Of a stretch of DNA of 64,000 nt, positions 15,838 through 42,140 are shown one piece after another (the stretch's first letter is position 1; the number at the start of each line of letters is the position of its first letter). The position numbers and the translations under genes were made by a program. Origin of the DNA: an uncultured Candidatus Saccharibacteria bacterium (GTDB lineage Bacteria > Patescibacteriota > Saccharimonadia > CAILAD01 > JADZBC01); NCBI GenBank assembly GCA_964436255.1, contig CAYTBW010000005.1, positions 6,374 to 70,373 of the forward strand, given 5' to 3'. Below the pieces are notes generated by a model, which made no database searches, was not told the DNA's origin, and saw only the letters and a list, made by a program, of their open reading frames with translations.

Positions 15838-15838
15838 C

Positions 15839-17112: not shown

Positions 17113-17348
17113 AAAAACGTGACATCATTACCCTCATTGTTTCGGTTGTAATACTGCTTATTGCTGGTGCGCTGATTTACCGTTACTTTGTCCCGCCTTC
17201 ACAAAACAACGGGGTTCAGGTGGTTGTGCCGCGGCCGGTTCAGACTACATTTGACCAGCAGCAGCTCGATACCCTGAAGAACGACGTAACCGATTTTACC
17301 CCCGACATTACACCAACTGATTCAGCAGCCAAGCCAATAATTCAGTAA
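17109..17348 (+). CDS. Small membrane protein (PilP-like position)
   Basis: 79 aa; TM helix (IITLIVSVVILLIAGALIY); translationally coupled to pilO. Confidence 0.4.
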   Translation: MKKRDIITLIVSVVILLIAGALIYRYFVPPSQNNGVQVVVPRPVQTTFDQQQLDTLKNDVTDFTPDITPTDSAAKPIIQ

Positions 17349-17360
17349 AGGGGCGTAACA

Positions 17361-19157: not shown

Positions 19158-19166
19158 GGAGGGCGG

Positions 19167-20237: not shown

Positions 20238-20239
20238 CT

Positions 20240-21487
20240 ATGATAGATTACCTATATACAGCTCGTGATCAGTCGAGCGGCTCCATTATCAAAGGCAACA
20301 TTCAGGCCGACAATGAATCAGCTGCTGCTGATTTGCTCATGCAAAAGGATTTAGTCCCCGTTAAAATAGTGCCTGCTAAAAATGGCAAGGTGCTTGGCAT
20401 AGATTTTTCTGGGGTGGAGAAGGTCAAGGCAAGGGATAGAGTAATATTTACTCGTCAGCTGTCCACATTGATTAAAGCAGGGCTGCCGATTACGCAGGCA
20501 CTCGCTACTGCAGTGGACCAGGTAAGTAGCGATAAGTTTAAATCGATTCTGCAAAAGGTCGTGGCTTCGGTTGAAGGCGGCACAAGCTTGGCTGAATCTT
20601 TCGGGCGCTTCCCGGACGTATTTAATCACACCTATGTTAGCCTTGTTAAGGCCGGAGAGACGTCTGGTACCCTTGACGTTGCTCTAGAGCGCTTGGCGGG
20701 TCAGCAGGAGAAGGAACTGGCCATTGCCTCAAAGATACGCGGGGCTCTCATCTACCCACTTCTGGTGCTCGGTGTCATAATCTTGGTGCTCGGTTATATG
20801 CTGGTTTCTGTGCTCCCACAGATTACAGGGCTCTATAGTGACTTAGGAAAGACGCTCCCGATTTACACGAGCATTCTTCTGGGTATTTCACAGTTCACTA
20901 TCAACTACTGGTGGCTGACAATTCTGATTATTGTCGCAATGGTGTTCGGGGTTAGGGCGTATGTGCAGTCCAGGGGCGGTCGGCGCATGCTGGACAAGGT
21001 TAAGTTAACTGCTCCAGTATTTGGTAAGTTGTTTCAAAAAGTCTATATGGCGCGCTTTACACGTACGCTAGGTTCGTTGGTCGCTAGTGGCGTGCCTATG
21101 CTCGAAGCACTCGACATCACAGCCGAATCGGTAAACAACGTGATTATCAAAGACATCATTGATGGTGCTGCCCAGCAAGTTAAGGGCGGTAAGGCCCTTT
21201 CTATGACGTTAAGCAATCATAAATACATTCTGCCGCTTGTACCACAAATGATTCGCATTGGTGAAGACTCTGGTACGCTTGGCGACATGCTGGATAAGGT
21301 CGCTAGCTTTTATGAGGACGAAGTAGACCAGACGGTCAAGAACCTCTCGACCATCATAGAGCCCGTTATGATGATTGTGCTTGGTGGGCTAGTGTTCTTT
21401 ATGATCGCGGCCATTTTGCTACCGGTTTATAGCTTGGTTGGCGGTGGGATCGATACGAACCCTGCTGATACGGTACAGACCAAGTAG
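20240..21487 (+). CDS. pilC: Type IV pilus inner-membrane platform protein PilC (GspF family)
   Basis: 415 aa; duplicated GspF domains with 3 TM segments. Confidence 0.9.
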   Translation: MIDYLYTARDQSSGSIIKGNIQADNESAAADLLMQKDLVPVKIVPAKNGKVLGIDFSGVEKVKARDRVIFTRQLSTLIKAGLPITQALATAVDQVSSDKFKSILQKVVASVEGGTSLAESFGRFPDVFNHTYVSLVKAGETSGTLDVALERLAGQQEKELAIASKIRGALIYPLLVLGVIILVLGYMLVSVLPQITGLYSDLGKTLPIYTSILLGISQFTINYWWLTILIIVAMVFGVRAYVQSRGGRRMLDKVKLTAPVFGKLFQKVYMARFTRTLGSLVASGVPMLEALDITAESVNNVIIKDIIDGAAQQVKGGKALSMTLSNHKYILPLVPQMIRIGEDSGTLGDMLDKVASFYEDEVDQTVKNLSTIIEPVMMIVLGGLVFFMIAAILLPVYSLVGGGIDTNPADTVQTK

Positions 21488-26178: not shown

Positions 26179-27090
26179 TTAGCTATTATCCGAATGGAAC
26201 TTTTTATGCACGTCCTTCAGGTGCGGGTCGGTAATGTGGGTGTAAACTTGTGTTGTCGAGATGTTGGAATGTCCCAGCAGACCCTGCACGCTACGGATGT
26301 CAGCACCGTTCATAAGTAGGTCCGTGGCAAAGCTATGCCGCAGCGTGTGTGGCGTAACGTGCTTGGTTATGCCAGCTAGCTTGCTGTACTTTTCAACAAT
26401 ACGCTGAATGCTGCGAGTGGTAAGTCGGGTGTATTCGCCGCCTTCGAGCTCGCTTTTGCTACCACTAAAGTGGATAAAGAGAGGGTCGAAGTCGTCTTTT
26501 CGACCCTGCAGGTAATCTGCCAAGATTTGTGTTGCCGAATCGCTCAGGTACACCGGCCGATCTTTTTGGCCTTTACCACGCACACTGAACTCACCACGTT
26601 CTAAGTTAATGCTGTCGCGATTGAGCGCCACCAACTCGGATACACGCAGCCCGGTAGAGAACAGGAGGGCCAGGATGGCACGATCGCGCTTACCAGTTTG
26701 CGTATCAGGCTTCACGGCCTCCATGAGCCTGTGAACTTCGTCTTTGTCCAGGAAGCTTACTTGTGGCCGTTTCGCCACCGCAAGCTCTATCTTGTCAGGG
26801 CTGAGGCTGGTTATGTCACGCTTAACCAAGTAGCGTAGGAAGCTACGCATAGCAATTAGGTGGTAGTTTTGCGTAGTGCGGCTAATACTGCGCCCATCGT
26901 CGGTGACGTAGCGGTTTAGCCATTGGCGCCATTTGCTGATGGTGTCGAGGGTGATTTTATCTACCTTAATCTCACCTGTGAACTCGTCGAAGCGGTTTAG
27001 GTAATGCGAATAGTTCTCGATCGTCTTGAGGCTGCGCCCACGCTCGACCTCTAAGTATTCTAAAAAGTCACCCATGTAGTCGCTAAACAT
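26179..27090 (-). CDS. Tyrosine recombinase XerC/XerD family
   Basis: 303 aa; Xer-type motifs (R...HTLRHSFATDLLMNGADIRSVQGLLGHSNISTTQVYTH). Confidence 0.85.
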   Translation of the reverse strand: MFSDYMGDFLEYLEVERGRSLKTIENYSHYLNRFDEFTGEIKVDKITLDTISKWRQWLNRYVTDDGRSISRTTQNYHLIAMRSFLRYLVKRDITSLSPDKIELAVAKRPQVSFLDKDEVHRLMEAVKPDTQTGKRDRAILALLFSTGLRVSELVALNRDSINLERGEFSVRGKGQKDRPVYLSDSATQILADYLQGRKDDFDPLFIHFSGSKSELEGGEYTRLTTRSIQRIVEKYSKLAGITKHVTPHTLRHSFATDLLMNGADIRSVQGLLGHSNISTTQVYTHITDPHLKDVHKKFHSDNS

Positions 27091-29589: not shown

Positions 29590-29619
29590 GAAGCCCCGAG
29601 TAATCTCGGGGCTTTTGGT
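29590..29619. terminator. Bidirectional hairpin terminator between ndk and GC-rich island
   Basis: GAAGCCCCGAG-taatc-TCGGGGCTTTTGG; serves ndk (+) and the convergent minus-strand small-gene operon. Confidence 0.65.
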
Positions 29620-29653
29620 TTGCGGGACCGGTCCAGTGCCGTAATCCCGCGCT

Positions 29654-29749
29654 TCAGGTGTCGATGGATCGAAGCAGGGCTCCGATGATCAGGCCGATGA
29701 ATCGACCAATCCGGTAGGCCAGGCGCTGTGAGCATGTCTCAGGCTTCAT
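29654..29749 (-). CDS. 31-aa hydrophobic peptide, 4th gene of coupled operon
   Basis: Not in ORF track; ATG overlaps 3' end of upstream gene, AGGAAG 9 nt upstream; MKPETCSQRLAYRIGRFIGLIIGALLRSIDT single TM. Confidence 0.4.
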   Translation of the reverse strand: MKPETCSQRLAYRIGRFIGLIIGALLRSIDT

Positions 29750-30002
29750 CACGCCAGCTTCCTGGCTCACCTAGCGGTGTTCTGCCCTCAGCCTGATCGC
29801 GTTTGGCCTTGTACTCCGCGGCACCATCGAGCCCTGCCTTGGTCAGGGCATCACCGAAGTCGTATCGGCTTGGTGGTACGCGTCCTTCACGAACGGCCCT
29901 GGTCTTTGCTCTGGCTCGCTCGATCTTGCCGGGAGCCGAGCAGATCAGATCCCACCACGCTTGCGTAAAGTTCGGGTCTTTGCCTGGGTATGGCTGTGTC
30001 AT
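29739..30002 (-). CDS. 87-aa basic soluble protein, 3rd gene of coupled operon
   Basis: ATGA stop/start overlap with upstream gene; MTQPYPGKDPNF...; true start inside longer track ORF 29739..30119. Confidence 0.5.
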   Translation of the reverse strand: MTQPYPGKDPNFTQAWWDLICSAPGKIERARAKTRAVREGRVPPSRYDFGDALTKAGLDGAAEYKAKRDQAEGRTPLGEPGSWRDEA

Positions 30003-30139
30003 CGGTGCCTCGTTGCACTTGGGTTCATGACCGCATCCCATCCGTGGACCAGGGCCCACCCGGCTGCCTTGACCGAGGTGATGCCGATGGCAGCACCCAG
30101 GCCAATTGCTCCGACGCACTTCAGTCCGTTGCGGATCAT
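29999..30139 (-). CDS. 46-aa single-TM peptide with GxxxG motifs, 2nd gene of coupled operon
   Basis: GAGGAGG RBS 5 nt upstream of ATG, ATGA overlap with upstream stop; MIRNGLKCVGAIGLGAAIGITSVKAAGWALV. Confidence 0.55.
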   Translation of the reverse strand: MIRNGLKCVGAIGLGAAIGITSVKAAGWALVHGWDAVMNPSATRHR

Positions 30140-30399
30140 CGGTTCCTCCTCAGCGGACGAGTGATGAGCCACGTCAGGCCGACCGGGGTGAGCACGAAGG
30201 CAGCCCCGAGCACCTGGTCCAGGAAGTGAGGCCCTCCCTGGTACTTGACCTCCTTTGGCCGTGCCGCTTCGGCGTGCTTGCGCTTGCTCGCCAGCGCCAA
30301 GCTGACTGCGCCCGCTGCGGCCGTGAGACCGAGCGAGACTGCCGTTCCAACTGCTTTCAACGTTCCCCCTAGTGGTTCTTGCTCGTGCGCGGATCGCAC
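30136..30399 (-). CDS. 87-aa two-TM membrane protein, 1st gene of coupled operon
   Basis: GTG start; two hydrophobic helices; preceded by AT-rich promoter-like region (TTGAGA-17-AATAAT) and upstream terminator. Confidence 0.5.
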   Translation of the reverse strand: MRSAHEQEPLGGTLKAVGTAVSLGLTAAAGAVSLALASKRKHAEAARPKEVKYQGGPHFLDQVLGAAFVLTPVGLTWLITRPLRRNR

Positions 30400-30530
30400 T
30401 ATGCATGGAGGGTATTATTAAATGAACACGCAAATATCTCAAGCTTAAGTATAAAGTAAACGAAAAAACGACCTAGATATTTCTAAGTCGTTCTGGGGTG
30501 GGCCCTGCGCCACACCCCGCCGCCTGCCGG

Positions 30531-30758
30531 CTAGTGGCCGCAAGCGATGACGCCGTTGGCGTACTGGATGCAGGTCACGACCGTGTCGTGGTGTTGGCTT
30601 CGCTTTACGGCCTCTTTGATGAGGGCCACCACGAGTGTGCCAAGCCAGATGCCGATGATCATGCCGCCGATGCGAGCGAGGCTGATCTCGCCAGACTCTC
30701 CAGCTCGGGTACGACTAGCAGGTGACTTCGCGCCTTGATAGTGCGAAAAAGCTTTCAT
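30531..30758 (-). CDS. 75-aa single-TM protein with Cys-containing C-terminal tail
   Basis: Strong RBS AAGGAGAGG 8 nt before ATG (MKAFSHYQGAK...); terminator hairpin AACGACCTAGA-tat-TTCTAAGTCGTT + T-run downstream (30462-30495). Confidence 0.6.
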   Translation of the reverse strand: MKAFSHYQGAKSPASRTRAGESGEISLARIGGMIIGIWLGTLVVALIKEAVKRSQHHDTVVTCIQYANGVIACGH

Positions 30759-30787
30759 CTCATACCTCTCCTTAGTGAGCGGGCGAA

Positions 30788-30973
30788 TTATCCGTTGATG
30801 AAGTTGATGACGCCGATCGTCACGAACACGGCGAAGGCCAGGAAGAAGATCGCCGTGTAGATGTTGCTGACCTCTACTTCTTCCGGGTGGCCCTTTTTGC
30901 TCTTTCTCCGGAACTCGTACATCCAACCGAACCGGGCCGGGTACTTATAGGTACCCCATTTTGCTTTGGCCAT
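30788..30973 (-). CDS. 61-aa membrane peptide (C-terminal TM)
   Basis: RBS GAGGAGG 5 nt before ATG; MAKAKWGTYKYPARFGWMYEF...IFFLAFAVFVTIGVINFING. Confidence 0.6.
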   Translation of the reverse strand: MAKAKWGTYKYPARFGWMYEFRRKSKKGHPEEVEVSNIYTAIFFLAFAVFVTIGVINFING

Positions 30974-31088
30974 TCAGGCCTCCTCAGTGTTTGGGGCGCC
31001 ATAGGCACCATGTGCAGGAACTTGTGTATTTATAGCATGAAATTAAGATGATTACAAGGGCTAGTATGTTATCTCTACGAGACTTTAA

Positions 31089-31136
31089 TTATCACCTAAA
31101 CTCACAATGCTGGATTATGAACTTGGGTAATGCCAG
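31089..31136. repeat. Junction repeat R3, copy 1 (TTATCACCTAAACTCACAATGCTGGATTATGAACTTGGGTAATGCCAG)
   Basis: ~90% identical to 33365..33413. Confidence 0.8.
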
Positions 31137-31181
31137 GTCTCGACTGGCAACGCTGCACATTGATGCGTGCAGGACATGGGT

Positions 31182-31619
31182 TCAGCTATCAGCCGAAGTC
31201 GATTCCTCGTCAGAGGTCTTTCCTCCGGTCTTCTTCATCTCCAGTAGGGTCCTAAAGATCATGTAGCCGACGAAGAGAATCGCGATGAAGATCATGCGGA
31301 GCAGTACGACTGCTTCGTGCATGTCCTTTACCTCGACCGGTGGTGGTGCCGGTGTCACCGGCTGCAGCCAAGAGGAGCTGCTCGCAGGCGGGCAGGGCTT
31401 CCACTGTTCGGTGCCGGGCACCGGCCCTCGTGGGTCACCTGGTAGCTCGGTCGGGACTAGGGCCTTGGGCACGCATTCTGACTTGGTTGGCGGCGCGGTC
31501 GTCGTGAAGGCCTGTGTCGTTGTTGTCGACGGGGAGCCTTCGCTTGACGCCGCAGAAGCGGGTGAGCCGATCGATGCTCCGAAGAGAATGATCAGCATTA
31601 GAATCAAGATACGCCTCAC
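31182..31619 (-). CDS. Secreted Pro/Thr-rich protein with C-terminal membrane anchor
   Basis: 145 aa; GTG start 9 nt after AAGGAGG RBS; signal peptide MRRILILMLIILFGASIGSPASA, TTTT/PPP-rich linker, C-terminal TM + charged tail. Confidence 0.65.
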   Translation of the reverse strand: MRRILILMLIILFGASIGSPASAASSEGSPSTTTTQAFTTTAPPTKSECVPKALVPTELPGDPRGPVPGTEQWKPCPPASSSSWLQPVTPAPPPVEVKDMHEAVVLLRMIFIAILFVGYMIFRTLLEMKKTGGKTSDEESTSADS

Positions 31620-31623
31620 GGCG

Positions 31624-31716
31624 CCTCCTTAGGGTAGGGATGGGACAAGCTTGAAGAAGCTAGCACCCGAACGTTAGAACTAGACTATAATAGCATAAGT
31701 GTAATAAAAAGTCAAT
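31624..31716 (-). promoter_or_regulatory. Promoter/RBS cassette P1, copy 1 (TTGACT-17-TATTAT ... CCTAAGGAGG)
   Basis: Minus-strand -35 at 31710-31715, -10 at 31687-31692, RBS 31624-31631; near-identical copy at 40899..40975. Confidence 0.65.
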
Positions 31717-31746
31717 GGTACATCACGTGATTGAGATTTGGAAATC
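31717..31746. repeat. Junction repeat R4, copy 1 (GGTACATCACGTGATTGAGATTTGGAAATC)
   Basis: Matches 33336..33365, where it directly abuts R3. Confidence 0.75.
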
Positions 31747-31861
31747 TTACGAGCTCAGTTCGGCTCGTTATACGAAATGAGCCCCACGTTGCCGTGGGGC
31801 TCGAGATCAGCTTGCCCTGCTTGGTGTATCGAGGATCTCATTCACGATACGCAGTTGTTGC

Positions 31862-32482
31862 TCAGGCCTGAGCCTGCTCCTTGTCCTCGACCTGCACCAC
31901 CACGAGGGGCGGGCAGGCCTTGTTCCACCAGGCACTGAAGCGGAACTGCCGCTTCTTGTAGAGGACCCCGATGATCCAGCAGGCTCCGATGATCACCGCT
32001 ATCCCGAGGAAGTACGGCCAGGCGGCCTGCAAGAAGTTGCCGATCGCAAGGAAGGCTTCCCACAGCATGCCGTTGGAAAGCCCGGCCACGATGACGCCAA
32101 CGCCGACGAAGGGGAGTACGTAGTACCAGGGGTTGTGCTTCCGGTACTCGCCCGTGCGCGGGCTGTAGCCCTTCGGAAGGAGCATCTTGTCCGTCGGGAT
32201 GTGTGACGGCAGCTTGTCTTTCTTCTTCGTTGTCTCGGGGGTAGGTGTGTAGCCGAGGAACCATGCGATTGGCACGACCAGGATCCAGAAGAGGAGCATG
32301 ATGATGCCAAGGATCACTGACCCGATGGCCGAAGCCGGAATCATGATCCAGTAGAACTTGCAGGCCTTCGCTCCTTCGATCTTCTCGGGATCCTCCCAGA
32401 AGAAGTTGACGAACCGGTAGCGCCTGCTGTCGGTGGGGATGGTCGAGAGCCGCGTCTTGAGCTTGCTGATGGGGTGGGGCAC
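31862..32482 (-). CDS. Four-TM membrane protein
   Basis: 206 aa; GTG start with GAAAGGCGG RBS; transcribed from minus arm of bidirectional promoter P2a; stem-loop GAGCCCCACGTTGCCGTGGGGCTC downstream. Confidence 0.6.
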   Translation of the reverse strand: MPHPISKLKTRLSTIPTDSRRYRFVNFFWEDPEKIEGAKACKFYWIMIPASAIGSVILGIIMLLFWILVVPIAWFLGYTPTPETTKKKDKLPSHIPTDKMLLPKGYSPRTGEYRKHNPWYYVLPFVGVGVIVAGLSNGMLWEAFLAIGNFLQAAWPYFLGIAVIIGACWIIGVLYKKRQFRFSAWWNKACPPLVVVQVEDKEQAQA

Positions 32483-32536
32483 GATGCCGCCTTTCTTGGG
32501 TGCGTAGCTACCACGGGTTGTGGCGGCATGAACAAC

Positions 32537-32585
32537 GCATATAATACCACGAAACCTTTACAAAAGCAATAGATTATGGTAATAT
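32537..32585. promoter_or_regulatory. Bidirectional promoter cassette P2, copy a
   Basis: Plus TTTACA(32557)-17-TAATAT(32580); minus TTGCTT (comp. 32564-69)-17-TATTAT (comp. 32541-46); drives 31862..32482(-) and 32636..33067(+). Confidence 0.65.
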
Positions 32586-32635
32586 GTACCCCTGCTCTCA
32601 ACCGAAGCAGTTGAACATCACAGGAAGGGGCTACA

Positions 32636-33067
32636 ATGCCCGACGTGGAAGTGGATTATCCCGAAGGCATGCTCGACGACATCACCAACCGTCTCCGCTT
32701 CAAGCGGGACGTCAAGGGGGTGGTCGCGCGTGGCATGGACTGCATCAAGCCGCCCGAGGAAGGTGAGCCGGAGGTCATGACGCGGTACGCCGCCGATCCC
32801 GACGGCAACGTCGGCCTGCTGCTCCGTCCGTACAAGCCCGAGGACGGCAGCGACATCTGGACCCCCATCCAGGTCCGGATCAGCACCTACGCATGGCCCG
32901 ATCGCATGGCCAACCTCGATGACCGCATCTGGGACATCACCCAGGACGTGCGGCGCCTCCTCAACGTCGAGGTCGAGGAGTTCCTGGAGCGCATGTTCCC
33001 CGGCAAGACCAAGCTGGTGGCCGTTCGCTTCGACCCCAAGTTCCCCGGAGCCTGGGCCGAGGCCTGA
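32636..33067 (+). CDS. Acidic soluble protein, unknown function
   Basis: 143 aa; RBS AGGAAGGGG; high-GC codon usage; followed by hairpin + intrinsic terminator module. Confidence 0.6.
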   Translation: MPDVEVDYPEGMLDDITNRLRFKRDVKGVVARGMDCIKPPEEGEPEVMTRYAADPDGNVGLLLRPYKPEDGSDIWTPIQVRISTYAWPDRMANLDDRIWDITQDVRRLLNVEVEEFLERMFPGKTKLVAVRFDPKFPGAWAEA

Positions 33068-33089
33068 TGCTTCAAGGCCAACAAGAGGC

Positions 33090-33166
33090 GGGGTGTCTCT
33101 GGAGCCAAGAGGCTCACACCCCAAGCGCGGTTTGCACAGAAATGTGCGAGCCGCATTTTCATTTGT
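33090..33166 (+). terminator. Terminator module T1, copy a (bulged hairpin + 12-bp stem/GAAA loop/U-tract)
   Basis: GGGGTGT..GAGCC-aaga-GGCTC..ACACCCC then GCGGTTTGCACA-gaaa-TGTGCGAGCCGC-ATTTTCATTTGT. Confidence 0.7.
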
Positions 33167-33298
33167 ACCCATTAATCCCAGGAGGGTAGGTTGCTAGCGC
33201 AACCTCCGTGGCGTGCTTGGTCAAAGCGCAAGCGAACTTGCTTTTGACGCTGCGCGCGCCACTCCACCGAACCTGCGGTTCTCATCCGCCCTAAATAC

Positions 33299-33341
33299 AA
33301 AAGCCTGCTGACTACTAATGTAATCATCAGACTTTTGGTAC
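33299..33341. terminator. Bidirectional hairpin T2, copy a, plus 7-nt copy of tRNA-Arg 3' end
   Basis: AAAAGCCTGCTGA-ctactaatgtaa-TCATCAGACTTTTGG-TACA; duplicate of tRNA-Arg 3' flank at 34426..34469. Confidence 0.65.
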
Positions 33342-33413
33342 ACCACGTAATTGAGATTTGGAACTTATCACCTAAACTCACAATACTTTGATTATGAACT
33401 TAGGTAATGCCAG
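33336..33413. repeat. Junction repeats R4+R3, copy 2 (contiguous)
   Basis: GGTACACCACGTAATTGAGATTTGGAAC|TTATCACCTAAACTCACAATACTTTGATTATGAACTTAGGTAATGCCAG. Confidence 0.8.
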
Positions 33414-33438
33414 TTTTGTGGGTCTGGCAACCATTTGC

Positions 33439-33750
33439 TCAGGCGTGCGAGCGCCTGGTTGGCTTTACTTTGTCAGCGACGCCGTCTGGTCCGTAGAAGA
33501 CCAGCTTACGAAGCCGGGGATGGAAGGTGAAGTTCTCGGCCTCCAGGAACTGCTCGAGAAGTTCGCGGGACATGCCCCGGACGACCAGCTCCTCCGTTCC
33601 TCCGTACATCAGCGCCCACGTCACCTGCATGAACTCAGGTGGCCTGAAGTCGACCACGAGCTTCCAGGGGTAGGTGTCGTCATCGGGCTCGTTGAACTGC
33701 CCGGTGAGGCTGATGAGCTTGATGCCTTCAATTGCTGGGTACTCGGGCAT
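33439..33750 (-). CDS. 103-aa soluble protein, unknown function
   Basis: Strong RBS AGGAGGG 6 nt before ATG; transcribed from minus arm of P2b; preferred over overlapping plus ORF 33388..33843. Confidence 0.6.
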   Translation of the reverse strand: MPEYPAIEGIKLISLTGQFNEPDDDTYPWKLVVDFRPPEFMQVTWALMYGGTEELVVRGMSRELLEQFLEAENFTFHPRLRKLVFYGPDGVADKVKPTRRSHA

Positions 33751-33803
33751 GGCAGCCCTCCTTGTTCAGGACGGGCTAGCCGTCATTACCAACATGAGAA
33801 CCC

Positions 33804-33852
33804 GCATATAATACCACTAAACCTTTACAAATGCAATACTTAGTGGTATGAT
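33804..33852. promoter_or_regulatory. Bidirectional promoter cassette P2, copy b
   Basis: Plus TTTACA(33824)-17-TATGAT(33847); minus TTGCAT-17-TATTAT; ~90% identical to copy a. Confidence 0.65.
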
Positions 33853-33876
33853 GTGGCATCACCCAGTGGTGAAAGA

Positions 33877-34302
33877 ATGACTTCCAGAAGCGATGAAAGG
33901 GTTCTTGAGATGGTTTCAGAAGCAGCTACCTTCCTTACCTCCTCGACGGAGGTGGGCCGGATCTACGGGCAGGGGATGGACGACGAGTGCATGTTCGACA
34001 CCCTCCCTCTGTTCGGGGGTGATCACGTGATCAACGTCCGGACGCGTGGGGCTGAGGCCCAGAGCATCATGATGCCGAGGCGTACCACGCTCCTGGTGCA
34101 GCTCTTCGAGAGGCCGGACACTCTCTGGCTGGCCTCAGTAGTGCGGATCAATGGCGAATGGATGATCATGTACTCGCCGGTCTCGCTCCCAGAAGTCCTG
34201 GACGGAAGGTCTGAGGCACCCGAACTTGCCGTCGTCACAGAGCGACAGCAGGCCGAGGGGGTCACGGACGAGATGGAGCATCGACTCCGACGAGATACGT
34301 GA
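33877..34302 (+). CDS. Acidic soluble protein, unknown function
   Basis: 141 aa from ATG 33877 (track GTG start 33853 lies inside the -10 element); followed by T1 copy b. Confidence 0.55.
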   Translation: MTSRSDERVLEMVSEAATFLTSSTEVGRIYGQGMDDECMFDTLPLFGGDHVINVRTRGAEAQSIMMPRRTTLLVQLFERPDTLWLASVVRINGEWMIMYSPVSLPEVLDGRSEAPELAVVTERQQAEGVTDEMEHRLRRDT

Positions 34303-34309
34303 GTGCGGC

Positions 34310-34386
34310 GGGGTGTCTCTGGAGCCACGAGGCTCACACCCCAATCGCGGTTTGCATAGAAATGTGCAGGCCGCATTTTCATTTGT
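34310..34386 (+). terminator. Terminator module T1, copy b
   Basis: Same structure as copy a; stem substitutions remain paired via G-U/compensatory changes (GCGGTTTGCATA-gaaa-TGTGCAGGCCGC). Confidence 0.7.
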
Positions 34387-34425
34387 GCTCAAAATATACC
34401 TACGGCTCTCATCCGCCCTAAATAC

Positions 34426-34465
34426 AAAAGCCTGCTGACTACTAATGTAATCATCAGGCTTTTGG
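34426..34465. terminator. Bidirectional hairpin T2, copy b (native tRNA-Arg terminator)
   Basis: AAAAGCCTGCTGA..TCATCAGGCTTTTGG immediately 3' of tRNA-Arg on minus strand. Confidence 0.7.
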
Positions 34466-34538
34466 TACCCTGGGAGGGAATCGAACCCCCGACGCTCTCC
34501 TTAGGACGGAGACGCTCTATCCACTGAGCTACCAGGGC
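34463..34538 (-). tRNA. tRNA-Arg (anticodon CCT)
   Basis: 76-nt cloverleaf read by hand: acceptor GCCCTGG/CCAGGGT, D-arm GCTC/GAGC, anticodon stem TCTCC/GGAGA with loop GTCCTAA, T-arm GGGGG-TTCGATT-CCCTC, encoded CCA. Confidence 0.8.
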
Positions 34539-34630
34539 GTATGCTTAACTCTGCTCACTCTACAACGCCAAGGCCCTCAGTGTAAGGGCGTTCGACGCTT
34601 GTTTTCAATCCTCGGCCTACGGCCTGGGCA

Positions 34631-34653
34631 CTGAGCTACCAGGTCGTGTGATG
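34631..34653. repeat. Partial duplicate of tRNA-Arg 5' half (CACTGAGCTACCAGGTCGTGTGATGC)
   Basis: 22/24-nt match to 34522..34544, ~110 bp outside the tRNA; att/pseudo-tRNA remnant. Confidence 0.6.
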
Positions 34654-36181: not shown

Positions 36182-37306
36182 ATGAGGGTGAAATCACGTT
36201 ATATGGCACAAGATCCAGACATTAAGCAGAACAAGAAGCCGGCTAAGCCTGCGGCCTCATCAACTAAAAAGTCAGCTCCGAAGAAGTCTGCGGGCAAAGC
36301 AGAGGTAAAGCCTGCAGCTAAGCCAGCAGAAGAGGCCAAAAAGCCTACCGGTGCCAAGCAGCAGAGCTTCCAGGAACGACTCAATAAGCTCGGAGTCAAG
36401 AACGGACCAAGCAAGAAGACCATTGGTTTGATTGTAGGTGCTGTTGTGGCTGCGATTGTAGTTATGATGATTGTGTTTGGCGTACTGATTTACAAATACA
36501 AGCAGACGAACCGTGCTGTGCGCATCTTTGCCAGCGTGGTGCCATATCCAGTGTCGAGCGTGAATGGCAACGTAGTATGGAACACTACTAGCTACAAGGA
36601 TTATTTGTTCGAACTTGCAAGTGTAGAGAAGTTCTATAAGTCACAAGGTCAGGACTTAACTTCTGCAGATGGCAAAAAGAAGTTCGCACAACTTAAGCAA
36701 GACTTAATTAAGCAGCAGGAAGACAACATCCTCGTAGAGCAGTCTGCTAAGAAGTATAAGATTGTCGTGACCAAAAAGGACGTAGACACTGAATTCAACG
36801 AGCTGGTTAAGAATGCCGGCGGTATCGAAAAGGTCAAGACGACCCTAGACAAGCTCTATGGCTGGACGGTCGATGACTTCCGTGAAAAGGTGCGTCAGAG
36901 CATCGTGCAAAAGAAGCTCGGCGAGAAGATCGCGAGTGATCCAGCATTGAACGGCGGAGCAGAGAAGCAGGCCGAGGACATCCTCAAGCAGGTTCGCGAA
37001 GGCGGTGACTTTGCAGAGCTGGCCAAGAAGTATTCTCAGGACGGTAGTGCATCGAACGGCGGAGACCTCGGGTTCTTCGGCAAAGGTCAAATGGTGCCAG
37101 AATTCGAACAGGCAGCCTTTGCGCTCGAAAAGGATGCAGTAAGTGGTATCGTAAAGACCCAGTACGGCTACCATATCATCAAGGTCACGGATAAGAAGGA
37201 TGACCAGGTGAAGGCATCACACATCCTCATTAAGGGAACTGATGTGGAGACTTGGCTCAAGGCTCAGCGAACCAAGGCGAAGATTAAGCAGTACTTCCGA
37301 CCGTAG
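36182..37306 (+). CDS. Membrane-anchored parvulin-type peptidyl-prolyl isomerase (PrsA/SurA-like)
   Basis: 374 aa (start may be ATG 36205); Lys/Ala-rich N-terminus, TM, PpiC rotamase signature (DFAELAKKYSQDGSASNGGDLGFFGKGQMVPEFE...YGYHIIKV). Confidence 0.75.
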   Translation: MRVKSRYMAQDPDIKQNKKPAKPAASSTKKSAPKKSAGKAEVKPAAKPAEEAKKPTGAKQQSFQERLNKLGVKNGPSKKTIGLIVGAVVAAIVVMMIVFGVLIYKYKQTNRAVRIFASVVPYPVSSVNGNVVWNTTSYKDYLFELASVEKFYKSQGQDLTSADGKKKFAQLKQDLIKQQEDNILVEQSAKKYKIVVTKKDVDTEFNELVKNAGGIEKVKTTLDKLYGWTVDDFREKVRQSIVQKKLGEKIASDPALNGGAEKQAEDILKQVREGGDFAELAKKYSQDGSASNGGDLGFFGKGQMVPEFEQAAFALEKDAVSGIVKTQYGYHIIKVTDKKDDQVKASHILIKGTDVETWLKAQRTKAKIKQYFRP

Positions 37307-37354: not shown

Positions 37355-37452
37355 TTATACGAAAATGATTACAAAAGGGTGCGCCGCTTCACCCGAGGGG
37401 AGTTTGTAACTCCTTCCTATGAGTGAAACGGCGGTGTGGTGGAGTAGCTGGG

Positions 37453-37707
37453 CTACTCGTTGCGCTTGTGCTGCCCGTGGGCCCGTGCGCGCTGGATGCA
37501 GTAACGCATCTCCCACTGGATCGGCCACAGCCAGTCACGACGCTTGCGCGGCTTCTGGATGTAGGGCTGATCCCAAGGTCCCAGGAGCCAGTAGATCACC
37601 CACATGACAGCAATCGCCGCCAAGATGAGGACCAACAGGCTTGTGGTGAGCGAGAGGTCCGCGTACCAATTTCCGATACCCTCGAGGGTATCTGTGAAAA
37701 CGCTCAA
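37453..37707 (-). CDS. 84-aa membrane protein
   Basis: TTG start, one TM helix (LLVLILAAIAVMWVIYWLL), basic C-terminus; weak RBS. Confidence 0.4.
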   Translation of the reverse strand: MSVFTDTLEGIGNWYADLSLTTSLLVLILAAIAVMWVIYWLLGPWDQPYIQKPRKRRDWLWPIQWEMRYCIQRARAHGQHKRNE

Positions 37708-37786
37708 TCTTTTCCCCTGATTCTGTTAGTGCGAGCGAGGAGAGAATCATAACAGATTCATGGCTGGTTCGCAATAGGATAAGCGT

Positions 37787-38179
37787 TCAGCCCGCGTCCC
37801 AGTAGCGAACGAAGGCTCCGCAGCTACCACAGTGAATATCGGCTTCGTGCCACATCATGCTGTAATTACGCATTTGGTGCGGTCCGGGGAAGCCACAGGC
37901 TTTGCAGCTGTTCGCAATCCTATGAGCTTCTTGGACTGGTCCAAGGTGCTCGGCGCAGTGGAGCGCACTCCCAACACCCGTGCCTTTGTTGTCACCGACT
38001 ATCTCCGCGTAGCAGTCGTGGCAGTAGCCGTAGACGGTCTTCCGGGGATCCTCCGTTGCATACATGAACGGGTAGTTCCCGTAGCCTCGGTGTACATGGG
38101 GGTCAGAATGGCCCTTCTCGCGTTCACATGTGAATTGAGCATTGTCGCCGATCGCAAAGTCACAGGTTTCTAGCTGCAT
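37787..38179 (-). CDS. Cys/His-rich putative metal-binding protein
   Basis: 130 aa; RBS TAGGAGAAT; multiple CxxC pairs (CHDC, CKAC, CGSC). Confidence 0.6.
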   Translation of the reverse strand: MQLETCDFAIGDNAQFTCEREKGHSDPHVHRGYGNYPFMYATEDPRKTVYGYCHDCYAEIVGDNKGTGVGSALHCAEHLGPVQEAHRIANSCKACGFPGPHQMRNYSMMWHEADIHCGSCGAFVRYWDAG

Positions 38180-38240
38180 CTGATTCTCCTAAGTTGTTAA
38201 GGTGCGTTTTCATTCTGCTCTTGTGACCACACGAGACATA

Positions 38241-38252
38241 GCAAAACGTTTT
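38241..38252. promoter_or_regulatory. 12-bp perfect palindrome CAAAACGTTTTG in divergent promoter region
   Basis: Centered between divergent genes 37787..38179(-) and 38285..38947(+); candidate operator for the adjacent wHTH protein. Confidence 0.35.
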
Positions 38253-38284
38253 GTACTGCTTGGCCTTGGGGTATACTTGGGCTT

Positions 38285-38947
38285 ATGCACTGGATTGAAC
38301 GCCACATACTCAAGCAACTCGCCTTTAACGACACAATGCGCTATAGCGAGCTCAAGCCCGATGCGGTAGAAGGTAATTTGTTTCAATACCACGCGCGGGT
38401 GCTAGAGAAGCAGAGTTTAATAAGTCGATCTGACGAGGGCTATAGCCTTACCGCCAAGGGTAAAGTATTCGTTGCCGATCTGAGCCAGATGAAGCAAATG
38501 GGCGTTCGTAAGTTGCCCCGTGCGGTCGTGATGATTGCGTGCAAGAATGACGCTGGGGAGTATTTGTTATTCAAGTGGCGCCGTCAACCGTACAGGGGGA
38601 TGGTGAGTCTACCGTTTGGCCGCCAGTTCTACGGTGAACCGCTCGACTGGGTGGTTAGCGAGCAGCTACGCTTAAAGACTGGTTATCAAGCTCAACTAGA
38701 GTTTATTGGCCAAGTGGACAGCATCACTTTGGATAAAGAGAGCGAGGCGGTTGATCATCTCGCGATTAGCGTATTCGAGGCTTCGGGGCTGACACGTGTC
38801 GAAACCCCCGACGGCTTAACAGGTGAAGCATTCTGGGCGCATCCGGGTATGCTGGACTCAGGCAACTGCCTGACCGGGTTTAGGGAGATTATTACGTGGC
38901 TAGGGGACCCCGGGCGAGCGCCGCTATTGAAGGTTTCGGGCTTGTAG
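38285..38947 (+). CDS. wHTH + Nudix-like domain protein (possible regulator)
   Basis: 220 aa; N-terminal winged-helix, C-terminal Nudix-fold-like segment with degenerate Nudix box (GRQFYGEPLDWVVSEQLRLKTGY). Confidence 0.45.
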   Translation: MHWIERHILKQLAFNDTMRYSELKPDAVEGNLFQYHARVLEKQSLISRSDEGYSLTAKGKVFVADLSQMKQMGVRKLPRAVVMIACKNDAGEYLLFKWRRQPYRGMVSLPFGRQFYGEPLDWVVSEQLRLKTGYQAQLEFIGQVDSITLDKESEAVDHLAISVFEASGLTRVETPDGLTGEAFWAHPGMLDSGNCLTGFREIITWLGDPGRAPLLKVSGL

Positions 38948-39075
38948 ATGAGCAGTGCTTCTAAATGGAGCTAGGTCAAGGGCAATGATCTGGGTTGACT
39001 ATTTTAAAGACAAACTGAAGGGGCCCGCCAAATCCTTTACACTTGTCGTGCTTAAGATATGGCGGGCCCCGGTGG

Positions 39076-39411
39076 TCACTTCGGAGGCCCGAACCTCCAC
39101 TCGCAGTGCAACCAGGCGGCTGTCTTGACCTCGAGTGAGAGGAGGGCTGCTCTGGCGACTTGGTATCCGGCAGGGGAGAGGTCGTACCTAGTAGCGCTCT
39201 CGCCCTTGAACTCGGTGACGATGCCGGCAGATACGCGTTTCTCGAGCAGTGGGTAAAGGGTTCCGTCTGCGACACCCGTTCGAGCCATGATCTCACGGGC
39301 GGTGATGGGCCTAACTGCTTCGATCAACGCTGCGTAGGTCTGGAGCGATTGCAGGCTCTCGTTGATGCGACGCGGCTTGCTTGGCAGCGCATCTGGTTCT
39401 TCTACGTCCAT
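39076..39411 (-). CDS. PadR-family transcriptional regulator
   Basis: 111 aa; RBS AAGGAAA; PadR winged-helix signature (ITAREIMARTGVADGTLYPLLEKRVSAGIVTEF...YDLSPAG). Confidence 0.6.
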   Translation of the reverse strand: MDVEEPDALPSKPRRINESLQSLQTYAALIEAVRPITAREIMARTGVADGTLYPLLEKRVSAGIVTEFKGESATRYDLSPAGYQVARAALLSLEVKTAAWLHCEWRFGPPK

Positions 39412-39472
39412 GCGGTTTCCTTATCCTCGATATACTTGGGTGGAGTCTCTTCTTCAAATTGCTGACGATTGG

Positions 39473-40027
39473 TCAAGCTGGCATAATCCCCGGGATACTC
39501 GTGTATGACACGTATTCGAACAGCTCGTTCCTGGTAAGGGAACTTGGGAATTGATCGAATCCAAGGATGGTGACCTTGATGTCCGATAGGGCAAGGATCT
39601 CCAGGATGGCATTGAATCGCTTGCCGTCGTTCGACGCCAAAACAATCTCGGCAACTCGATCTTGTCTGACGAAGTAGTCGATACATTCGACGATGTCTTC
39701 ATCGACATCGCTGTCTTCGGTGGTGCGCACTTTTGAATACACCCGATAGCCGAGCTTTTTCATAGTCATGACCCACCCGAGCTGCTTGAGGCTCGCATCT
39801 GGGTCGATTGGGCGGTTGACGAAGATCTTGGCGTAAAGCGTGCAGCCTTGCGCGGATGACTTCTCGCGTAGCCACTTCATCAGCATGTCCAGGCGCATGC
39901 GTTCGTTCGCTCTTGGGGCTCTTTCTCCCAGAGTCAAGCCGAAGCTTGCATCGACGTTTGGAGCATCCATTACGAATACAACGAGCTTTTTGCGTGTTGG
40001 CTTGCGGCGTTTCCTTGGTTCAGGCAA
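39473..40027 (-). CDS. NYN/LabA-like (PIN-fold) putative RNase
   Basis: 184 aa; TTG start; NYN motifs VVFVMDAPNV ... IVLASNDGKRF (lvSgDgDF-like). Confidence 0.55.
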   Translation of the reverse strand: MPEPRKRRKPTRKKLVVFVMDAPNVDASFGLTLGERAPRANERMRLDMLMKWLREKSSAQGCTLYAKIFVNRPIDPDASLKQLGWVMTMKKLGYRVYSKVRTTEDSDVDEDIVECIDYFVRQDRVAEIVLASNDGKRFNAILEILALSDIKVTILGFDQFPSSLTRNELFEYVSYTSIPGIMPA

Positions 40028-40136
40028 GGGCCGAACCTTTCATTTCAAGGAGCATATACTGCTCATGGATAGGAACAGCAAAATTATGACACTAAACACA
40101 GGAAACTACAACCACATTGTCTAGTAAATGAAGGGC

Positions 40137-40185
40137 CCCCGGCAGAGCTCCTTCTGGGTAGAAGGGTTGCCCTGCCGGGGGCGTA
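40137..40185 (-). terminator. Hairpin terminator after 40190..40756 gene
   Basis: CCCCCGGCAG-[loop with inner CCTTCT/AGAAGG hairpin]-CTGCCGGGGG. Confidence 0.5.
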
Positions 40186-40189
40186 GTTG

Positions 40190-40756
40190 TCATCGCTCGT
40201 CGAGCGGGTAGTTCCTCTCGTCGAGCGGGTCGTAGCGGCTCTCATCGAAGTCGTACCGGTCGAGGTCGGCCCGGTAGGCCGTCTCCGACCGGTAGGCATC
40301 GAAGGTGTCTTCGATGATCCCACGGATGGCCGCGATGGCCTCGTCCTCGCTGTCACACTTGATGACTTCGCGGTGGTTGCAGTACTGGTTGACCGTCCCC
40401 TTGACGCCGACGAGCAGCGCCTCGTTGTGGCCCAGCACATGCTTGTCGACACCGATGCCGCGGTCCCAGACGTCCATGAAGAGGCGGACGTTGATGGACG
40501 CTGGGTCGAGCGAGTAGCTCGACCTGAAGCGATCGGTGCAGCCACTTGGGCGCCAGTAGGCCTCACGGATGGCGTCAACCTTGCCCCAGGGGATGCGGTC
40601 GAACTCATCCGGCCACAGTTCCTGGGTGTAGATGAAGGTCGACCCGTTCGCTCGAGTGCCCTCCTGGTCGGCCCGGACGGAGGTTGCCGTCTCGAGCTTC
40701 TCGCGGATGACTCGCTCGAAGAGTGCGTAGGTGTTCGGGTCGATGTTGGTCTGCAT
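40190..40756 (-). CDS. 188-aa protein with acidic C-terminal repeats, unknown function
   Basis: ATG at 40756 with AAGGAGCAACACC RBS; overlapping track ORFs 40084..40950(-) and 40187..40972(+) judged spurious GC-rich frames. Confidence 0.6.
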   Translation of the reverse strand: MQTNIDPNTYALFERVIREKLETATSVRADQEGTRANGSTFIYTQELWPDEFDRIPWGKVDAIREAYWRPSGCTDRFRSSYSLDPASINVRLFMDVWDRGIGVDKHVLGHNEALLVGVKGTVNQYCNHREVIKCDSEDEAIAAIRGIIEDTFDAYRSETAYRADLDRYDFDESRYDPLDERNYPLDER

Positions 40757-40853
40757 GGTGTTGCTCCTTGCGAAGTAGGTACGGTTGCCCGTACCAGTTC
40801 GAAGGAACACACCCTGGTGTTCAGGTACGGGAGAGAAGGGTGGGGCCGTAGCC
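40757..40853 (-). promoter_or_regulatory. Leader with mutually exclusive hairpins (possible attenuator)
   Basis: CCCGTACC (1) / GGTACGGG (2) / CCGTACC (3): 1:2 and 2:3 pairings are alternative; between 14-aa leader ORF and main gene. Confidence 0.3.
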
Positions 40854-40898
40854 CTACGCTTGTCGCTCCTGTTCCCGAATGGTGTAACGGTACTTCAT
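40854..40898 (-). CDS. 14-aa leader peptide MKYRYTIREQERQA
   Basis: AAGGAGG RBS 7 nt upstream of ATG, directly after P1 promoter copy 2; not in ORF track. Confidence 0.35.
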   Translation of the reverse strand: MKYRYTIREQERQA

Positions 40899-40975
40899 GC
40901 CCCACCTCCTTAGGTAGACTTGAGGGACGTGATGAGGTGTATAATAGCATAAGTATAATAAAAAGTCAATAGCCC
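40899..40975 (-). promoter_or_regulatory. Promoter/RBS cassette P1, copy 2 (TTGACT-17-TATTAT ... CCTAAGGAGG)
   Basis: Minus -35 at comp. 40954-40959, -10 at comp. 40931-40936; near-identical to 31624..31716. Confidence 0.65.
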
Positions 40976-41034
40976 GGCATTCATACAAAGTAAAAACCCC
41001 ACTTATTGAGTGAGGCTCTTACTTTGGCGGGCCC

Positions 41035-41056
41035 GACCGTGGATTACTATAGGTAT
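41035..41056. repeat. Partial direct repeat of tRNA-Asp 3' end (TTGGCGGGCCCGACCG-T-GGATT)
   Basis: 16-nt exact match to comp. of tRNA-Asp 3' end at 41185..41200, ~130 bp away; att-site-like remnant. Confidence 0.65.
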
Positions 41057-41184
41057 AATTTCCTCACATGCTCGAAGCTAGGAGGTAGCTTCTGCGCGTG
41101 CTCGTCATTATCGAACCGCGGTAACGAATAGCGAGCTGGCGCTCACCCAAGAAAAAACACCGAGGCAAGCTCAGTGTCTTTTCT

Positions 41185-41261
41185 TGGCGGGCCCGACCGG
41201 ATTCGAACCGGCGATCTCCTCCGTGACAGGGAGGCATGTTAGGCCTCTACACCACGGGCCC
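41185..41261 (-). tRNA. tRNA-Asp (anticodon GTC)
   Basis: 77 nt; acceptor GGGCCCG/CGGGCCC, anticodon stem CCTCC/GGAGG with loop CTGTCAC, T-loop GGTTCGAATCC, encoded CCA. Confidence 0.8.
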
Positions 41262-41916: not shown

Positions 41917-42140
41917 TGACTGAACGACTGGCTGTAGCCAGGTGCACAGTCATATATGTACCAACCTTGGTAACTTAACAGGTTTGAGTTCCGTCAAAAT
42001 CAGACATCTTGCCTTGACATCGTGATAACGCGCGGTAAACCGAAGTGCGTAGCACTGTTTGTCAAGCGAAGAGGAGAATTTATGCCAAGGAGTGGAGCTC
42101 ATTGTCTGTTATGAGCGACTAAAAGGCATAAAATCGACGA

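Follow-up and report, generated by a model that had tools for sequence, protein, structure and literature searches.

The Saccharibacteria (TM7) live as obligate epibionts; their genomes are tiny and contain few mobile elements that can be recognised, and for these reasons the way in which they acquire and exchange strain-specific genes is poorly understood. The question is raised by a locus in a stretch of 64,000 nucleotides (nt) of DNA from an uncultured Candidatus Saccharibacteria bacterium (contig CAYTBW010000005.1 of GenBank assembly GCA_964436255.1, positions 6,374 to 70,373; the window hereafter), where a block of small genes lies between the gene for tRNA-Asp and that of a PpiC-type isomerase. 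A preliminary description of the window had likened these genes to the regulatory, immunity or defence cargo of actinomycete integrative elements. Is the block the remnant of one such element, or has it been assembled in another way? The reading favoured here, to which a probability of about 0.6 is given, is that the block is a flexible island at tRNA-Asp, a patchwork of small expression modules, self-contained and independent of one another in their gain, loss, reordering and allele exchange between related strains.

Nine loci of the tRNA-Asp-PpiC type (the window and eight related loci, designated by L numbers) were compared, with the gene order read from tRNA-Asp to PpiC. In the window this order is a structured element with a partial copy of the tRNA end, the open reading frame (ORF) ORF188, a gene for an NYN-domain nuclease with a gene for a small winged helix-turn-helix (wHTH) protein, a divergent pair encoding a wHTH-Nudix protein and a Cys-rich protein (Cys130), and a gene for a small membrane protein (TM84). 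The content between PpiC and tRNA-Asp was different in each related genome examined. L003, with about 92% nucleotide identity, has the NYN-wHTH pair, the Nudix/Cys130 pair and the membrane protein gene and lacks positions 40099-41145, which hold the element, the copy, the promoter and ORF188. L001 carries the same Nudix/Cys130 alleles as the window with a wHTH allele just 52% identical, and its homology to the window stops at 39096. L006 contains ORF188 and the Nudix/Cys130 pair. L088 contains the element with its copy, the NYN gene, an extra ORF, the wHTH gene, ORF188 and the membrane protein gene. The NYN-wHTH pair is placed between ORFs of 337 and 155 amino acids (aa) in L101 and is followed by ORFs of 157 and 80 aa in L103, and in L004 the element and copy are followed by 2.3 kb of unrelated ORFs. 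The ORF188 cassette was also found alone, in an unrelated context and with its promoter retained, in L089. Between the window and L003 the identity swings from 75 to 100% per 200-nt step, and it does so across both the island and its flanks. The module boundaries and the independent distribution of the modules are apparent from this comparison; since the modules are inherited separately, the block is a mosaic and no single element. The tRNA-linked variability presupposed in the preliminary description is thus confirmed, both by the differences among all related genomes examined and by the approximately 92% identical strain without 40099-41145.

The setting is that of an island in most respects. 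The tRNA-Asp gene is encoded by the minus strand, which puts the block, with its lower coordinates, on the 3' side of the gene, directly at the tRNA end, and the available tRNA-Asp stretch is 100% identical across L003, L006, L088 and L004. As had been reported, the block is GC-rich: GC is 0.52-0.64 over 37.4-41.0 kb versus 0.46-0.50 in the flanks, unevenly distributed and with its maximum over 40190-40756. The GC content at third codon positions (GC3) is 0.88 in ORF188, 0.81 in the 84-aa membrane ORF and 0.62-0.70 in the remaining island genes, whereas core genes have values of 0.45-0.59; the base composition of the island genes (0.62-0.88) is therefore atypical. Genes are variable between close relatives with conserved flanks, and a direct repeat of the tRNA 3' segment (16-22 nt, 41024-41045) is present, proximal rather than distal to the tRNA. 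An integrase was found in none of the nine loci (0/9), and in Pfam searches with the full set of island ORFs no domain of an integrase, relaxase or replication protein was detected in 37.4-41.3 kb, in agreement with the preliminary description. The flanking PpiC-type isomerase (36182-37306) matches a Patescibacteria metagenome-assembled genome at 99% identity and Saccharibacteria metagenome-assembled genomes at 54-78%. The host sequence is a Saccharibacteria/Patescibacteria chromosome of about 49% GC and not that of an actinomycete. A Xer-type tyrosine recombinase of 303 aa (XerC/XerD/XerA-like; 26179-27090, minus strand) is encoded about 10 kb away, at a position conserved in L006 and L007. 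It is the sole recombinase seen near this island and a second one at tRNA-Arg, and probably serves as the resolvase of chromosome dimers. The window also encodes proteins relevant to DNA uptake and recombination, namely RecA and, in a type IV pilus cluster, PilM, a PilB/T-type ATPase and PilC (42-1130 and 14797-21487). The features of the tRNA-Asp island are collected in Table 1.

Table 1. Features of the tRNA-Asp island in the window, from the tRNA towards PpiC (window coordinates unless a locus is named)
Feature	Position	Strand	Evidence or remarks
tRNA-Asp(GTC), CCA encoded; anchor of the variable region	41185-41261	-	ARAGORN; Rfam tRNA 62 bits
Terminator-like hairpin; stem formed by tRNA CCA and A-run pairing with T-run and TTGG	41146-41184	-	Fold; conserved in L003
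Conserved structured element, variant 1; invariant core hairpin CAGAAGCTACCTCCTAGCTTCGA at 41072-41094	41046-41145	-	Conservation, covariation
Partial copy of tRNA-Asp, T-loop to CCA; exact over 16 nt, 22 nt long if a 2-nt indel is allowed	41024-41045	-	"att remnant" of the preliminary description
Members of the element family	41024-41184	-	Also L088, L004, L090-L100, L003 (6525-6682), L005, L007, L103
Second terminator-like hairpin, behind the partial copy	40991-41016	-	Fold
Strong sigma-70-type promoter of the ORF188 cassette (TTGACT, 17 nt, TGcTATTAT)	40941-40969	-	Kept upstream of ORF188 homologues in L088, L006, L089
Conserved 14-codon upstream ORF (MKYRYTIREQERQA) with AAGGAGG ribosome-binding site, ORF188 leader	40854-40898	-	Nucleotide-level conservation in L088, L006
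ORF188, single-gene cassette; invariant C-terminal SRYDPLDERNYPLDER	40190-40756	-	Seven homologues, 186-192 aa
ORF188 terminator hairpin	40135-40180	-	Left edge of the 40099-41145 indel versus L003 lies just beyond
NYN184, NYN-domain (PIN-like) nuclease, acidic motifs intact	39473-40027	-	Pfam, alignment, relatives
Small winged-helix protein, 111 aa, downstream partner of the NYN gene	39076-39411	-	Weak TrmB/IclR/PadR-type helix-turn-helix matches
Hairpin between convergent genes; GGGCCCGCCA(A), the final 10-11 nt of tRNA-Asp, present in both arms	39020-39070		Low confidence
wHTH (N-terminal) and Nudix fold (C-terminal) protein, 220 aa, catalytically dead	38285-38947	+	AlphaFold 2, Foldseek, PDB profile, alignment
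Perfect 12-nt palindrome CAAAACGTTTTG, 18 nt upstream of TATACT -10 box	38242-38253		Candidate operator
Cys130, Cys-rich, 130 aa, C-terminal zinc ribbon; divergent partner of the wHTH-Nudix gene	37787-38179	-	Pair retained in L003, L006, L084
TM84, 84-aa membrane protein, fast-evolving, fixed position beside PpiC	37453-37707	-	83-89% identical in L001-L003

The direct repeat was studied closely. The exact 16-mer CGGTCGGGCCCGCCAA is found on the tRNA strand at 41024-41039, and with the indel the match reaches 41045; the copy is therefore real but lies about 10 nt from the 41035-41056 assigned to it in the preliminary description. It begins 145 nt past the tRNA 3' end, a 26-mer of it was reproduced by no dinucleotide shuffle, and it is kept in a decaying state in two other species, with 2 mismatches in L004 and 4 in L088. 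As to its designation as an att remnant, a tRNA-end copy is present, but it closes a unit of about 160 nt directly behind the tRNA, a unit that belongs to a repeated family, and does not delimit the gene block. A further copy of the tRNA-Asp end was sought at the far (PpiC) end of the island and not found. The hairpin at 39020-39070, which lies 27 nt from the position (39096) where homology between the window and L001 stops, may with low confidence be a degenerate second copy. The variant-1 element of about 100 nt is 88-90% identical in L088 and L004 versus 73-79% in the adjoining coding DNA, and the lower stem of its core hairpin covaries. The architecture of the hairpin directly behind the tRNA recurs behind other tRNAs of the element family, and because a hairpin similar to the one behind the partial copy lies directly 3' of the tRNA in L088 and L004, the two hairpins have been swapped between genomes. 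Searches of Rfam 15 gave only tRNAs at the gathering score, and nothing at E<=1 in 41020-41150 or in 33170-33300 of the tRNA-Arg island.

The same architecture was observed repeatedly, namely a terminator-like hairpin, a covarying structure of about 100-120 nt and a copy of 15-21 nt of the T-loop-to-CCA segment of the element's own tRNA. A scan of a metagenome collection for the core hairpin yielded 11 loci. In all ten of these that contain a tRNA, the core hairpin is situated 90-200 nt downstream on the same strand, after a hairpin; the tRNAs are those for Leu, Pro, Glu (three), Asn, Arg, Phe, Val and Met. The element end at most of these loci is a recognisable, often imperfect copy of the 3' end of the tRNA concerned. 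In L098 a 65-nt exact repeat, comprising the tRNA end, the hairpin and 15 further nt, was found on both sides of one element. Behind tRNA-Gly of L003 and L088 (not of the window), and behind tRNA-Arg of L103, L005 (two in tandem) and L007, there is a second sequence variant built in the same way. The member in the gap between tRNA-Gly and tRNA-Thr of L003 (6563-6685), also seen in L088, ends in an exact copy of 18-20 nt of the tRNA-Gly end; at the corresponding site the window has 186 nt of unrelated sequence (41955-42140), a polymorphism between strains that are about 90% identical.

The frequency of such copies was determined by counting exact matches of at least 12 nt to the last 24 nt of a tRNA at 140-300 nt downstream, with the upstream side scored likewise. 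Downstream copies were present at 14 of 44 tRNAs in Saccharibacteria-type loci and at 0 of 23 tRNAs in control loci from other phyla, and no upstream copies were detected in either set (0/44 and 0/23). Eight of the 14 copies come from loci that had not been chosen via the core motif, and the copies span the T-loop or the 3' T-stem through CCA. In variant 2, compensatory changes were seen at 15 of 30 pairs, compared with 7.3±1.6 in shuffles (0/500 shuffles reached 15), and 89% of the alignment cells are paired versus 23-45% when the partners are slid. The fold of the element is under selection. With regard to the strand on which it forms, the counts of G-U versus A-C were 8:6 and 4:1.

The element family is apparently undescribed. 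A tentative explanation, offered as possible but short of even odds, is that a superfamily of small elements not yet described is present in the 3' flank of up to a third of Saccharibacteria tRNA genes, with the att remnant as the right-hand repeat of such an element. These could be non-autonomous mobile elements that target the T-loop of any tRNA and seed islands, or RNAs of a scaffold-plus-3'-guide type by which a trans-encoded recombinase or nuclease would be brought to tRNA genes. A repeat from T-loop to CCA is the typical appearance of att sites of the T-loop class of tyrosine integrases, and a classification made by Williams in 2002 reportedly includes tyrosine-integrase att sites that cross over in the tRNA T-loop. 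The elements resemble such sites, and miniature non-autonomous elements, in the direct repeat and in leaving the tRNA intact. They differ in that only about 140-185 nt lie between the repeats and carry a covarying secondary structure, and in that one element family is found behind at least 10 tRNA identities with no linked integrase.

Several other identities of the element or its cassettes were rejected on inspection of the sequences. Integron cassettes or attC sites do not fit, as there is no IntI, no R''/R' core site (RYYYAAC/GTTRRRY), the repeats are tRNA ends and the cassettes have their own promoters. The conserved loops are off the consensus of hammerhead or K-turn motifs, and a transfer-messenger RNA or tRNA-like gene was discarded after a negative ARAGORN result and because acceptor pairing is impossible. 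The variants share no conserved -10 box, contrary to a promoter-driven antisense small RNA, and the copies are too few for a DNA uptake sequence. A group I intron was rejected on position and size, as Patescibacteria tRNA introns are located at position 35/36 and are far larger (PMC13011429).

For the wHTH-Nudix protein, the AlphaFold 2 model has a mean predicted local distance difference test score (pLDDT) of 94, and its Nudix part matches MTH1/NUDT15/CDP-Chase with a Foldseek probability of 1.0 (target TM-scores of 0.65-0.74 to MTH1 and NUDT15) and a PDB profile at E=6e-4, in keeping with the Nudix alpha/beta/alpha fold. The wHTH domain and the fold named in the preliminary description are thus supported, but the catalytic Nudix box (GX5EX7REUXEEXGU) has been lost: (E/D)QLxxK stands in place of REUxEE in all 34 of 34 aligned members. 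Since REUxEE is lost family-wide, the Nudix domain is a binding module and not a hydrolase. The family comprises at least 55 clusters, is Saccharibacteria-wide and occurs in several contexts, including beside ribosomal-protein operons, where the gene is divergently paired with a Cys130 relative or a DEDDh exonuclease gene. In L086 (5299-5892) a DEDDh-type exonuclease takes the place of Cys130 as the divergent partner.

The wHTH/dead-Nudix protein is predicted to be a ligand-sensing transcription factor. A block (ATAGCAAnACnTTTTGTACT) around the palindrome CAAAACGTTTTG in its promoter region is invariant in the window, L003, L006 and L084, whereas the proteins are only 59-60% identical, which makes the palindrome a candidate operator of this regulator. 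Regulators of the NrtR type have the Nudix domain at the N-terminus. The present protein is like them in combining a non-catalytic or weakly catalytic Nudix fold with a winged helix, in the palindromic operator (here a candidate) beside the gene, and in the predicted coupling of a nucleotide ligand to DNA binding; it is unlike them in having the wHTH N-terminal, so that the order is reversed, and no sequence match to NrtR models was obtained with it.

The Cys-rich protein noted in the preliminary description is real and ends in a zinc ribbon. Five full-length relatives of Cys130 were found, and in L082 it is present as a C-terminal domain. Its final 40 residues (CxxC...RNYxxMWHDGDIHCxxCGxxVRxxDAG; 37787-37909 in the window) correspond to a widespread stand-alone mini-protein of 50-80 aa (P0079-P0154). 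In P0097 a zinc ribbon of the Cys130 type is fused to a DEDDh exonuclease. Small membrane ORFs comparable to TM84 occupy its position in L088 and L004.

The NYN RNase assignment also held. The Pfam NYN score of NYN184 is barely over the cut-off (24.3 versus 24.2 bits), and 4 of 7 relatives have a precomputed PF01936 match. The motifs DAPNVD, SDVDED and ASNDG are invariant in the family, as are D21, D26, D107, D109 and D134, and a Tsukamurella protein with an NYN annotation shares 33% identity with NYN184 over 180 aa (E=1e-22). In Mycobacteriales the homologous genes are downstream of trmB and beside an MMPL gene; these relatives are presumably of the Rv0207c type. They share DAPN(V/L)D, SDVDED and AS(N/A)DG with the protein of the window, which differs from them in its tRNA-linked hotspot, in the small wHTH gene that follows and in its restriction to few Saccharibacteria. 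The Tsukamurella gene precedes an MMPL transporter gene in a context of chromosomal, not plasmid, type. The actinobacterial homologue (L104 4144-5612 from Tsukamurella; L105 from Nocardia) was observed to overlap the 3' end of trmB, which encodes the tRNA m7G46 methyltransferase, and this overlap hints at a role of the NYN subfamily in tRNA or RNA metabolism. The chromosomal Mycobacteriales relatives are the sole connection of the block to actinomycetes and are consistent with an acquisition of the gene from actinobacterial hosts. In L003, L088, L101 and L103 the NYN gene lies at the same tRNA-Asp locus, and a homologue of the 111-aa wHTH protein is encoded 3' of it in all four. For this small protein the earlier assignment to PadR was not upheld (E=0.092, 13.2 bits versus a cut-off of 27), and the best Pfam match, TrmB at E=2e-4, is likewise under its cut-off; the protein is a generic winged helix. 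Judged from gene order and domains, the pair may be a toxin-antitoxin-like or RNA-processing unit and would be compatible with a type II (VapBC-like) toxin-antitoxin system.

The model of ORF188 is confident, with a pLDDT of 81.7, and no resembling fold was detected in PDB or BFVD. The upstream ORF MKYRYTIREQERQA in its leader is absent from L089, and the conserved upstream ORF and leader suggest that the gene may be under translational or attenuation control. Long ORFs overlapping this region at 40084-40950 (minus strand) and 40187-40972 (plus strand) were judged to be artefacts of high GC.

A scheme for the origin of the island can be proposed from these observations, among which the boundaries and separate distribution of the modules, the domain assignments and the recurring tRNA-end architecture are shown directly. 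Nearest to the tRNA, the first module consists of the terminator-like hairpin, the structured element of about 100 nt and the T-loop-to-CCA copy; the second is the ORF188 cassette with its own strong promoter, conserved upstream ORF, gene and terminator; the third the operon of the NYN nuclease and small winged-helix protein; the fourth the divergent pair of zinc-ribbon protein and wHTH-dead-Nudix regulator; and the fifth the small membrane protein beside PpiC. New DNA would enter at the tRNA 3' end by T-loop site-specific recombination with a recombinase encoded elsewhere, or alternatively by Campbell-type homologous insertion (of small circles) or by something new. The modules would then be shuffled by homologous recombination in a naturally competent lineage, RecA and type IV pilus genes being present in the window. 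At least the NYN gene would have been acquired from actinobacterial hosts, and the NYN/wHTH pair would act as a toxin-antitoxin or RNA-processing unit. The wHTH-Nudix regulator probably acts on its own promoter, where it would bind the conserved palindrome on sensing a nucleotide-type ligand.

Several points weigh against this account of the island. An integrase or mobility gene was found neither in the island nor in the eight related loci. Since no integrase is linked and the repeats are a mere 160 nt or so apart, the mechanism of entry is only inferred. There is only one clear tRNA-end copy, and it is tRNA-proximal; the 10-nt match at 39060-39069 is weak. Because the sole clear copy adjoins the tRNA, no att-type repeats enclose the gene modules. 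Both the Nudix/Cys130 pair and the NYN gene are present here in several relatives, which partly resembles vertical inheritance with loss, and recombination is not specific to the island since mosaic identity reaches into the flanks.

One competing explanation is that the block is what is left of one decayed integrative element at tRNA-Asp, of the type of a prophage, an integrative and conjugative element (ICE) or an actinomycete ICE (AICE), whose genes for integration, replication and transfer would have been lost, with regulatory, immunity or defence cargo remaining. Such an element could account for the tRNA 3'-end site, the tRNA-end copy, the atypical composition, the presence of two wHTH regulators with a nuclease and the actinobacterial affinity of the NYN protein. 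It is very improbable all the same, as the host is no actinomycete, not even fragments of integrase, Rep, Tra or relaxase genes were seen, the modules are separate and reordered in relatives, unlike those of one decaying element, and the copy of the tRNA end is 145 nt away from the tRNA and not distal. The comparison with AICE cargo made in the preliminary description fails on each defining character: the host belongs to the Saccharibacteria, and integrase, RepSA-type and FtsK-like genes are lacking here and in the eight related loci. Elements of the pSAM2 type share the tRNA 3' end and a Nudix-fold protein (Pif) with the island, which has no int, xis, repSA or traSA and carries a dead Nudix box behind an N-terminal wHTH. 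The suggestion of a Pif-like Nudix immunity factor has accordingly to be given up, the Nudix box being dead and the family being a widespread chromosomal one of the Saccharibacteria with no plasmid homologue. The databases of mobile elements point in the same direction. All island proteins gave only noise in PHROGs, and NCBIfam gave nothing; IMG/VR contained no relatives of ORF188, the wHTH-Nudix protein or NYN and no match to three element motifs. In tBLASTn searches a phage collection gave no match to Cys130, the only query, and a plasmid collection matched NYN alone, in a chromosomal-type context, with no homologue of the wHTH-Nudix protein.

A locus for anti-phage defence or a toxin-antitoxin system, in which NYN would be the effector or toxin, the small wHTH protein its antitoxin or regulator and the wHTH-Nudix protein a sensor of a nucleotide signal, is improbable too. 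The NYN-wHTH pair is tight and co-inherited in a variable hotspot, with intact nuclease motifs, and the Nudix fold is suited to nucleotide ligands. No PADLOC model, however, matches any member: all island proteins gave only noise at E>=0.002 in PADLOC-DB v2, and seven NYN family members were without a match at E<=0.01, so that the defence cargo of the preliminary description finds no counterpart there. Moreover, the closest characterisable NYN relatives are in the trmB operon of Mycobacteriales chromosomes, a housekeeping-like context, and the Nudix regulator elsewhere pairs with a zinc-ribbon or exonuclease gene and not with NYN. Some of the evidence would also be explained if the block were an ordinary lineage-specific region shaped by gene loss, local rearrangement and fast evolution, with the tRNA-copy element as an unrelated neighbour. 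The occurrence of NYN and wHTH at the same locus in five relatives (L003, L088, L101 and L103 among them), the conserved Nudix/Cys130 family, the fixed position of TM84, the lack of mobility genes and the mosaic flanks all agree with this view. It is nevertheless doubtful, given the presence or absence of ORF188 between strains about 92% identical, the same cassette and promoter at the unrelated L089 locus, the permuted module order in the window versus L088, the wholly different genes of L004, and the contrast between the GC3 of ORF188 (0.88) and that of the core (about 0.5) together with the actinobacterial affinity of NYN. The observations of the preliminary description are thus largely borne out, and its idea of an island is correct in outline; its reading as an actinomycete integrative element with defence cargo is not supported.

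Islands of a comparable kind have been reported from Prochlorococcus, where tRNA-anchored islands with scattered partial tRNAs are seeded by tycheposons (bioRxiv 10.1101/2020.12.28.424599). Those islands and the present one have in common a streamlined genome, hypervariable blocks on the tRNA side, partial tRNA copies and small strain-specific cargo, with older material farther from the tRNA and most instances lacking an integrase. They differ in phylum, in that no tycheposon hallmark (tyrosine or large serine recombinase, replication module) occurs in the nine loci, and in that the tRNA copy here encloses only about 160 nt and not kilobases. On the best reading, the island itself is of the kind known from Prochlorococcus and the structured elements that flank the tRNA are the unexpected part. 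The locus thus offers a concrete route for gene acquisition in Saccharibacteria, through tRNA-anchored hotspots that are filled with self-contained cassettes of one or two genes; these pass from strain to strain and, for NYN, probably also from actinobacterial hosts. The missing insertion mechanism may plausibly be traced through the structured elements with their tRNA-end copies; should these prove to be mobile or to act as guide-like RNAs, they would represent a new kind of tRNA-targeting element, and a search for the partner enzyme would become possible. With its conserved candidate operator, the wHTH/dead-Nudix protein is a lineage-specific regulator that is tractable for study.

A second GC-rich island was observed in the window at 29600-34462, on the 3' side of tRNA-Arg (34463-34538, minus strand), and all of its ORFs are without Pfam domains. 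It contains internal direct repeats of 85, 71 and 52 nt at a spacing of about 1.1-1.3 kb, which include the last 6 nt of the tRNA and the terminator (33271-33341 is repeated at 34398-34468), together with a degenerate element of variant 2 near 33170-33300. The ORFs at 32618-33172 and 34023-34382 (both on the minus strand) have near-identical N-terminal segments of about 28 residues (MKMRxAHFxANRxWGVSLxAPETPR), encoded at 33087-33172 and 34307-34382, and their upstream regions are shared as well. A copy of 22 nt of the tRNA-Arg 5' end (34522-34543) with 91% identity was found at 34629-34650, 107 nt upstream of the gene. The tRNA-Arg (31686-31716) and tRNA-Asp (40940-40970) islands share a promoter sequence of 31 nt, ATTGACTTTTTATTAYACTTATGCTATTATA, with one mismatch; it is followed by CCTAAGGAGG in both, and both copies are conserved in L088.

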